Virus record (IMG/VR): IMGVR_UViG_2541047727_000009
Strand: one strand, 5' to 3'
From: a virus
Lineage: Duplodnaviria > Heunggongvirae > Uroviricota > Caudoviricetes > Peduoviridae
DNA length: 31,660 nt
Below are positions 21,940 to 24,264 of this stretch, piece after piece (the stretch's first letter is position 1; the number at the start of each line of letters is the position of its first letter). A program made the position numbers and the translations under genes. The notes below the pieces were generated by a model that was not told the origin of the DNA, did no database searches, and saw nothing but the letters and a program-made list of their open reading frames with translations.

Positions 21940-22533
21940 AAGCACGTCTGACGCATGCAAAAAAATGCATCTTTTGTATGCAATGCAGAAATCAAACAAA
22001 TTTGAGTATAAATTAACGATGAGCCCTATGATTTTTAACTTCATCCCTAGCAGTTAACAGCAAATTAAAAGTCTTTATCTGCCTGATACTGCCCTGAACA
22101 GTAGTAACAACGATACTCAACATCACCATCATCCATTGGCCAAATGCTCATTTCGCTGCTGGGAGCCTGCGCACCACAACAATCGCAAGCAACATCAATA
22201 TCATCACTATCTTCATTCTGACAAAAAGTGCATTTGTAACCCGTAGAAGACTCATCAGAGGGAATCATTGTGTCGTTAGAACACTCAGGACATTCATAAA
22301 CTTTCCAATCGACCAATTCATAAAATTTATGCCTAACCCCATAAAAAGCTTCAGCCTCTCTTTCTTCAACTTCTTTCTTGGCTTCAGAGAGCCTATGAGA
22401 GTATTCATCAGCTAAAGTTTGAAATATCTGTAAGTTATCTGCACCGACTTCATCTTCAAGATTAAAAAGATCGAAGATATCAATAAACTCAGCTACCCCC
22501 CGGACTAGGCGTCCAATACACAAGCGCGCGTCT

Positions 22534-22537
22534 TTAG
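22534..22537. repeat. IS5 target-site duplication TTAG (left copy; right copy at 23733-23736)
   Basis: Identical 4-bp TTAG directly flanks both IS5 termini; fits the IS5 YTAR target preference. Confidence 0.7.
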
Positions 22538-23732
22538 GGAAGGTGCGAATAAGCGGGGAAATTCTTCTCGGCTGACTCAGTCATTTCATTTCTTCATGTT
22601 TGAGCCGATTTTTTCTCCCGTAAATGCCTTGAATCAGCCTATTTAGACCGTTTCTTCGCCATTTAAGGCGTTATCCCCAGTTTTTAGTGAGATCTCTCCC
22701 ACTGACGTATCATTTGGTCCGCCCGAAACAGGTTGGCCAGCGTGAATAACATCGCCAGTTGGTTATCGTTTTTCAGCAACCCCTTGTATCTGGCTTTCAC
22801 GAAGCCGAACTGTCGCTTGATGATGCGAAATGGGTGCTCCACCTTGGCCCGGATGCTGGCTTTCATGGATTCGATGTTGATGGCCGTTTTGTTCTTGCGT
22901 GGATGCTGTTTCAAGGTTCTTACCTTGCCGGGGCGCTCGGCGATCAGCCAGTCCACATCCACCTCGGCCAGCTCCTCGCGCTGTGGCGCCCCTTGGTAGC
23001 CGGCATCGGCTGAGACAAATTGCTCCTCTCCATGCAGCAGATTACCCAGCTGATTGAGGTCATGCTCGTTGGCCGCGGTGGTGACCAGGCTGTGGGTCAG
23101 GCCACTCTTGGCATCGACACCAATGTGGGCCTTCATGCCAAAGTGCCACTGATTGCCTTTCTTGGTCTGATGCATCTCCGGATCGCGTTGCTGCTCTTTG
23201 TTCTTGGTCGAGCTGGGTGCCTCAATGATGGTGGCATCGACCAAGGTGCCTTGAGTCATCATGACGCCTGCTTCGGCCAGCCAGCGATTGATGGTCTTGA
23301 ACAATTGGCGGGCCAGTTGATGCTGCTCCAGCAGGTGGCGGAAATTCATGATGGTGGTGCGGTCAGGCAAGGCGCTATCCAGGGATAACCGGGCAAACAG
23401 ACGCATGGAGGCGATTTCGTACAGAGCATCTTCCATCGCGCCATCGCTCAGGTTGTACCAATGCTGCATGCAGTGAATGCGTAGCATGGTTTCCAGCGGA
23501 TAAGGTCGCCGGCCATTACCAGCCTTGGGGTAAAACGGCTCGATGACTTCCACCATGTTTTGCCATGGCAGAATCTGCTCCATGCGGGACAAGAAAATCT
23601 CTTTTCTGGTCTGACGGCGCTTACTGCTGAATTCACTGTCGGCGAAGGTAAGTTGATGACTCATGATGAACCCTGTTCCATGGCTCCAGATGACAAACAT
23701 GATCTCATATCAGGGACTTGTTCGCACCTTCC
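22538..23732 (-). mobile_element. complete IS5 insertion sequence (1195 bp)
   Basis: Terminal inverted repeats GGAAGGTGCGAATAAG (22538-22553) and the reverse complement of GGAAGGTGCGAACAAG (23717-23732); encodes an InsH-type transposase; length 1195 bp matches IS5. Confidence 0.9.
22684..23664 (-). CDS. insH: IS5 transposase InsH, 326 aa
   Basis: Product [35 protein letters not shown]... recognised as IS5 InsH; ATG at 23664. Confidence 0.9.
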
Positions 23733-24264
23733 TTAGGAGTAAGTCTGAATTGATAATGCTCAATATCATTTCTTAAATTCTTTATCCAAGCTATATCATT
23801 ACAAAAATCAATATCTACAAAATCAACCCCAGTTATGCCACATTTCTCACACTTAGCAAAGTTTAGTGCCTGATCTAAGGTTATCGTATATGGCCTAGAT
23901 TTCCCTTCAATGAACCTTCCTAAATCAACGCCATCCTCGATAATTTTATTATATGCGTCTAAAAGACTGATTGATTCTCGCTTTGCTCTTGTAGCTATTT
24001 GTTTATAGCAATCGGAATACAGTAAATTTTCATCTACTGTAACAATATATAACTTCAACACCAGCTCAAGAAAATGTGACAAATGCAAGATAGCAAATTT
24101 ATATTGCCGCAATTCTCCTCTCTGCCCTAACTCATACTTTGCTAAAGCTTCATTAAAACTATCAATAGCATTCTCTTGTAAATCCAGTTGATATTCCATT
24201 ACATCACCTAAAAATTTCATATTTATATGAGTGCAGAAAACCATTCAGCACTCATTGCTTATAA

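Follow-up and report, generated by a model that had tools for sequence, protein, structure and literature searches.

Between the cos site and the replication gene of a P2-like prophage of the Peduoviridae (IMG/VR record IMGVR_UViG_2541047727_000009; the whole 31,660-nucleotide stretch is referred to here as the window), a copy of the insertion sequence (IS) IS5 separates two open reading frames (ORFs) carried on the same strand. The arrangement raises the question of whether a single gene was split, what this gene encoded and why it was lost. A first-pass annotation, made from the DNA letters and their ORFs, had proposed that IS5 interrupts one gene of 311 codons encoding a possibly toxic defence effector. 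We find that IS5 did split one gene, which could be fully reconstructed. We further consider it likely that the window carries an IS5 null allele of a defence candidate combining a HEPN domain with zinc ribbons, that the gene belongs to the variable cargo of the P2 hotspot, and that it was struck by a neutral or nearly neutral transposition event. Coordinates of the features discussed are collected in Table 1.

Deleting 1199 bp in silico (IS5 and one TTAG copy) brings the two flanking minus-strand ORFs into one frame of 311 codons, which runs from an ATG at 24199 to a stop codon at 22065 and whose junction at the protein level reads ...HYQFRLTPKDARLCIGRL... (also given as ...RLTPKDARLCIG...). 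Excision and translation thus bear out the exact restoration of the frame claimed by the first-pass annotation, and the resulting protein is 100% identical to the annotated 311-residue product WP_004099450.1 of E. coli GN04171. The chromosome of this strain harbors a P2-like sister prophage devoid of the IS and differs from the excised 2202-bp region at two nucleotides. The empty site of the IS-free locus L001 reads GTCTTTAGGAGTAAG, with TTAG present once, and four more IS-free contigs (L006-L009) share an identical empty site. The IS-free allele expected in related strains is accordingly found in five sister prophages, that of GN04171 and those of the four contigs. Beyond these, homology searches returned more than 120 relatives, mostly of about 270-311 residues and spanning the whole query, and in a scan of species-representative genomes the match fell inside a single ORF of 253-364 residues at every one of the loci retrieved (78/78). 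The family counts 931 cluster representatives at E <= 1e-3, is distributed over about 900 clusters at 50% identity in Gamma- and Betaproteobacteria, and includes 64 member sequences in the 90%-identity cluster of the intact protein.

The ATG at 24199 is preceded by an AGGTGA Shine-Dalgarno sequence rated as good. Some public gene calls start at an ATG further upstream, at 24244, which would add 15 residues (326 in total; window positions 24200-24244, minus strand). We rejected this start because the extension is disordered in the structural model, missing from most homologues and unused by RefSeq. A scan for consensus promoters near the gene yielded 10 sites against 7.2 +/- 3.3 in shuffled sequences, that is, no excess, and was put to no further use.

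The inserted element displays all three hallmarks of IS5, namely its length and terminal inverted repeats, an IS5-type DDE transposase, and a 4-bp target duplication of the YTAR type. The 16-bp inverted repeats are imperfect (15 of 16 positions complementary), and the transposase, encoded in the same orientation as the disrupted gene, matches the NCBIfam model NF033581 ('IS5 family transposase') with 365 bits for a cut-off of 140, as well as Pfam DDE_Tnp_1 (5e-35) and DUF772. At the DNA level, thousands of E. coli records contain annotated IS5 copies that share 99% or more identity with the element. The duplicated TTAG (CTAA on the gene strand) fits the YTAR motif reported for IS5 target duplications (PMC5009759). 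In its 1195-bp length, 16-bp inverted repeats, 4-bp YTAR duplication and AT-rich target, the event is indistinguishable from other insertional inactivations by IS5 in E. coli and differs from them only in the identity of the gene struck. The mutation is therefore of an ordinary kind, caused by a common jumping gene of E. coli.

Two explanations would do away with a split gene altogether, and the first-pass annotation had itself singled out both as ways in which it might be wrong. Were the flanking ORFs two genes brought into one frame by mere chance upon removal of IS5, the agreement of frame by itself would be a 1-in-3 chance. Such a coincidence does not account for the identity of the joined product to an annotated protein over all of its 311 residues, for homologues that are mostly near full length and made as one polypeptide, for the contiguous match at each of the 78 loci, or for a 3' ORF that is devoid of an ATG and offers only an internal TTG. 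Since an intact gene with an identical product exists and the family is encoded by single ORFs, we regard the two-gene explanation as refuted, with a negligible probability of being correct. A mis-joining of an IS5 copy from elsewhere into the locus deserves consideration in that IS copies are a classic source of misassembly. However, a 165-kb NCBI contig that spans the IS (GCA_000456985.1, KE699399.1) matches the window at 100% identity over 12.5 kb and shows the same junctions, and an independent short-read contig (8 samples), also 100% identical, leaves the gene, continues for 25 bp of IS5 and ends there. Because both contigs carry the junction, and with a perfect 4-bp duplication of the YTAR type on either side of the element, misassembly does not account for the disrupted allele, and we assign it only a very slight probability.

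What the intact gene encodes was approached through an AlphaFold2 model built from a 70-sequence alignment on P0001, a protein 99% identical to the reconstructed one whose numbering equals that of the 311-residue protein plus 15 (predicted local distance difference test, pLDDT, 85.3; predicted template modelling score, pTM, 0.73). In P0001 numbering, helices 22-41 and 47-70 are followed by a helical insert (72-130), by a helix (145-162) that terminates in RNDIEH and by a further helix (170-190). A long helical linker then leads to beta-hairpin zinc ribbons at positions 250-326. The protein thus presents the four-helix up-down bundle of HEPN domains, with an Rx4-6H motif (R143-N-D-I-E-H148) at the junction before the last helix. 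Within the alignment, two motif residues never vary (I146 and H148), and three more (R143, N144 and E147) are conserved in at least 90% of sequences. All but one of the eight ribbon cysteines are invariant in the 70 homologues (237, 240, 257, 260, 272, 275 and 298), and C301 completes the second ribbon. Pfam matches across the 70 family members were to DUF3644 (33/70), HEPN (7/70) and pEK499_p136 (6/70). The DUF3644 count (PF12358) was obtained at E <= 0.1, with a best score of 31.1 bits for a cut-off of 27.6, and does not include the 311-residue protein. Further searches added little: with the whole protein as query, Foldseek found no significant match in PDB or BFVD and tiny zinc-ribbon matches only, a profile search of PDB sequences gave weak zinc-finger matches only, tblastn against 50,697 phage records gave no match, and a plasmid search gave three distant homologues only. 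Taken together, the intact product looks like a single-polypeptide candidate antiviral effector made up of a DUF3644-type HEPN domain, a helical linker and two four-cysteine zinc ribbons.

IS5 entered this gene at codons 155/156, eight residues past the catalytic histidine H148, in agreement with the placement of the R-x4-H motif upstream of the insertion by the first-pass annotation. The 5' part of the gene encodes HEPN helices 1-3 and the helical insert of about 60 residues, whereas the last HEPN helix (with G163, R164 and F172), the long helical linker and the zinc ribbons are encoded by the 3' part. The truncated product had been described as keeping the N-terminal domain and gaining nine IS-derived residues while losing the Cys-rich C-terminus. 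Only the last of these points stands as worded. The IS-derived residues number eight (EGANKSLI), the codon of K156 being a hybrid with AA contributed by the target and G by IS5. As to the N-terminal domain, HEPN profiles extend 15-37 residues beyond the catalytic histidine: in the family member P0097, whose motif occupies residues 108-113 and whose residue 121 is equivalent to the insertion point, the HepT-like, pEK499_p136 and DUF3644 matches run to 136-154, and in the validated defence protein HEC-08 (see below) the DUF3644 model extends 37 residues beyond H128. The modelled helix immediately downstream of the insertion point carries the invariant residues G163, R164 and F172. Because both the HEPN profiles and this conserved helix extend past the insertion, the remnant is devoid of the last core helix of the domain. 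The IS5 allele is a null allele, with the fourth HEPN helix, the linker and the zinc ribbons all lost, and the 164-residue stub probably cannot fold. Expression of a C-terminal fragment was also considered and judged unlikely; the frame is open from inside IS5, and its sole in-frame start is the internal TTG at 22523. No polar effect is to be expected of the insertion, since only cos lies downstream in the transcription unit.

The location of the gene is suggestive of its participation in defence. The cos-proximal locus between gpA and gpQ of P2-like phages is a hotspot of variable, often antiviral cargo (Rousset et al., PMC9122126), and P2 itself carries old and tin at this place (PMC9122126). 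The disrupted gene lies between A and Q, next to cos, at a site whose cassette varies among related prophages. It comes last in the leftward transcription unit on the gpA side, about 200 bp from cos, and has a GC content of 37% compared to 53% for the window. The IHE3034 prophage abruptly ceases to be homologous to the window at 21893 and 24264, two points that mark the limits of a cassette swap, and its corresponding slot (L002 4108-4890, equivalent to window 21894-24263) holds a different hypothetical gene of 260 codons (WP_000864673.1) between cos and the membrane-protein gene. These homology breaks and the different gene found between them indicate that the 311-codon gene constitutes an independent single-gene cassette.

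Profile searches point in the same direction. The best-scoring curated model for the 311-residue protein is PDC-S64 of PADLOC (E 3.6e-17), which is matched by all 70 family members (best E 3.8e-32). The match is significant and partial: its best stretch in the 311-residue protein scores about 60 bits and takes in profile positions 3-87 of 339, and that in P0097 takes in positions 2-188. PDC-S64 is likewise a single-gene candidate. The partial match suggests that the 311-residue family is a sister of the model's seed family and not that family itself. PDC systems comprise 145 untested candidates nominated through 'guilt by embedding' (bioRxiv 10.1101/2024.01.29.577857), and the name PDC-S64 did not occur in those portions of the literature that were searched. 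A defence role, as entertained by the first-pass annotation, is rendered plausible by the gpA-gpQ location, by the PDC-S64 matches and by the defence genes that neighbor homologues in other genera.

The latter contexts include a Cap4-nuclease/SMC cluster in Pseudomonas, Mrr in Acinetobacter, AIPR in Vibrio (once beside P2-like tail genes), Hachiman in a Roseateles relative, and an Eco57I-type methylase, HNH and PIN in Klebsiella. A qualitative scan of flanking ORFs, limited to the top families reported for 138 ORFs at 39 loci (half of the 275 ORFs) and not amounting to an enrichment statistic, further revealed AriA/PtuA/AbiLi-type ATPases, SduA, ZorA and integrases amid housekeeping genes. In Vibrio fluvialis (L021 5039-7906), a 48%-identical homologue directly follows the AIPR gene and adjoins P2-like tail genes (gpU, X, gpD); the pair of AIPR and homologue may travel as phage cargo in Vibrio too.

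The closest known system is HEC-08 (Hachiman-embedded candidate 08), a 366-residue protein of E. coli ECOR52 whose validated anti-phage phenotype is lost upon mutation of the motif histidine (Payne et al., bioRxiv 10.1101/2024.01.29.577857). Its sequence was taken from Table S2 of that study. Both proteins consist of one polypeptide with an N-terminal DUF3644-type HEPN domain bearing an Rx4-6H motif, followed by C-terminal zinc-finger or zinc-ribbon modules; both are encoded among defence genes, and HEC-08 also matches the PDC-S64 and DUF3644 models. HEC-08 differs in being longer, in having more cysteine clusters and in being embedded in Hachiman rather than in the P2 hotspot, and the HEC-08 model matches 2 of the 70 family members weakly (5.5e-4) and the 311-residue protein not at all. 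By analogy, the 311-residue protein may thus work like HEC-08 while standing outside the HEC-08 family, whose architecture it shares without belonging to it by sequence. HepT/MntA-type HEPN toxins and the prophage protein HepS (Gifsy-1) differ from it in having no fused zinc-ribbon module. No MNT antitoxin gene was found adjacent to the gene, either at this locus, where the upstream neighbor encodes a membrane protein without a family match, or in the contexts examined in other genera. Reasoning from HEC-08 and other HEPN RNases of defence systems, we propose that the zinc-ribbon module of the intact protein would keep the HEPN site off until a phage cue is sensed, and that the HEPN domain would then cut RNA (tRNA, mRNA or rRNA), bringing translation to a halt and aborting the infection. 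Metal-independent RNase activity of the HEPN kind and an anti-phage function of the intact protein are both predicted on this basis, the latter also through guilt by association.

The simplest account of why the gene was struck is a neutral insertion into a gene that is dispensable and offers many target sites. An IS5 copy of the host genome would have transposed into the CTAA (YTAR) site at codons 155/156 with duplication of 4 bp, the insertion being neutral or nearly so and passed on clonally thereafter. With 17 YTAR sites over its 936 bp, the gene reaches a density of 18.2 per kb, compared to 6.1 per kb for the remainder of the prophage, which consists largely of structural, packaging and replication genes. 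IS5 was the IS element that inserted most often in one mutation-accumulation study of E. coli, with 361 of 758 insertions (PMC5009759). The first-pass annotation had instead invoked a recurring inactivation of toxic effectors by IS elements, which finds no support as a cause here. Selection for the knockout, the intact HEPN protein being toxic or autoimmune in its host and the insertion bringing relief, has a precedent in IS-inactivated cas genes (PMC10359306), and appears unlikely in the present case. We see one insertion event only, and no other disrupted copy of the gene among the 78 species-representative loci, all with an unbroken ORF, or the five sister prophages, all with the intact allele. 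The 64 sequences of the 90%-identity cluster likewise argue against a costly gene, as does the threefold higher density of IS5 target sites in a gene that the phage can dispense with, and, according to a large survey, the P2 and P4 hotspots rarely contain defence pseudogenes (PMC13586616). An even less probable alternative is that the insertion itself is functional, either because the stub partners with related HEPN proteins in a dominant-negative or anti-defence role or because IS5 serves as a reversible switch through precise excision. HEPN RNases commonly act as dimers, as established for Csm6 and HepT, and the stub retains helices 1-3, the motif, the native start and the sequence upstream of it, all of which would be compatible with such a partner. 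It is nonetheless deprived of the core helix that bears the invariant residues, and, fragments at contig ends aside, no natural homologue is truncated in this manner.

Several observations weigh against the account of a nearly neutral hit in a HEPN/zinc-ribbon defence gene. The 311-residue protein itself has no match above threshold in Pfam or NCBIfam. It resembles HEC-08 weakly in sequence (hhalign probability 14%, E 0.0019), over the first two helices only. The members of the exact family are, like PDC-S64, candidates. Many of the genes flanking homologues elsewhere are housekeeping genes, and the neighbor scan is qualitative. The assignment of the lost segment to the core of the HEPN domain derives from profile extents and secondary structure rather than from superposition, and the neutrality of the insertion is an assumption.

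The intact gene is of a known kind, in that single-protein defence candidates joining a HEPN domain to zinc ribbons have been described, and represents a new candidate member. A bolder reading, which we hold to be doubtful, would make the intact protein the founding member of a distinct single-gene abortive-infection family apart from HEC-08, carried as swappable cargo by P2-like phages, with the IS5 allele recording an autoimmunity cost or counter-selection by a resident element in one lineage of E. coli. The dead allele in the window has little direct biological weight, the prophage having lost one cargo function. It does document cleanly the inactivation by an IS of a cargo gene in the defence hotspot of P2, a setting reported to hold few such pseudogenes. 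More usefully, the exact intact sequence and a natural IS-free strain, GN04171, make this HEPN and zinc-ribbon defence candidate directly clonable, and the natural IS5 allele offers a ready null control for experiments on the intact one.

Table 1. Positions of the disrupted gene, the IS5 element and surrounding prophage features in the window.
Feature	Position	Strand	Remarks
Terminase	18833-20635		
Portal gene Q	20635-21669		
Q terminator	about 21675-21690; also given as 21673-21690		GC-rich hairpin then T-run right behind the portal gene; corresponds to P2 tQ
cos, 19 nt	21840-21858	minus	GTGCTTTCCCCGCCTCGCC; exact reverse complement of P2 cosL (AF063097 positions 1-19)
Disrupted gene including IS5	22065-24199	minus	
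3' part of disrupted gene	22065-22537	minus	Remains of codons 155/156, codons 157-311, stop
Zinc-ribbon module	22098-22292	minus	Cys237/240/257/260 and Cys272/275/298/301
Target-site duplication, copy 1	22534-22537		TTAG on plus strand, CTAA on gene strand; YTAR site
IS5 insertion sequence	22538-23732	minus	Exactly 1195 bp; inverted repeats, transposase matches
IS5 terminal inverted repeat	22538-22553		GGAAGGTGCGAATAAG; read directly
IS5 DDE transposase ORF	22684-23700	minus	338 residues from first ATG; 326-residue start in public gene calls
ORF as it stands now	23705-24199	minus	164 residues: 156 native plus EGANKSLI from the IS5 end, then TGA
IS5 terminal inverted repeat	23717-23732		CTTGTTCGCACCTTCC; one mismatch with the other arm
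5' part of disrupted gene	23733-24199	minus	Codons 1-155 and first two bases of codon 156
Target-site duplication, copy 2	23733-23736		TTAG
HEPN Rx4H catalytic motif	23756-23773	minus	R143-N-D-I-E-H148; from sequence and conservation
Low-GC membrane-protein gene	24265-25038	minus	
DUF3850/ASCH gene	25426-25914	minus	
Replication gene A (gpA)	25878-28205		

The membrane-protein gene next to the cassette has a GC content of 38% and encodes a product of 243/257 residues with an N-terminal hydrophobic segment and no match in Pfam, PADLOC or NCBIfam. When the two-gene region was used as a DNA query, 137 complete E. coli genomes gave matches, and the HEPN gene was present in just one of them. The partial matches listed from this search cover the membrane-protein gene and map to the same place in P2-like prophages. 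The membrane protein was considered as an obligate partner of the HEPN protein in a two-gene system and rejected as such, being found without the HEPN gene and absent from the contexts of homologues in other genera; its gene may be cargo, or serve defence, in its own right.

Further along the locus, the DUF3850/ASCH ORF overlaps the 3' end of gene A and is conserved in all sister prophages examined. Sister prophages with an intact HEPN gene (L006/L007, positions 1072-2079) carry an extra 335-codon gene of the PAPS_reduct family just upstream of gpA. The absence of this gene from the window (about 28133-28172) points to a second variable spot in these phages.

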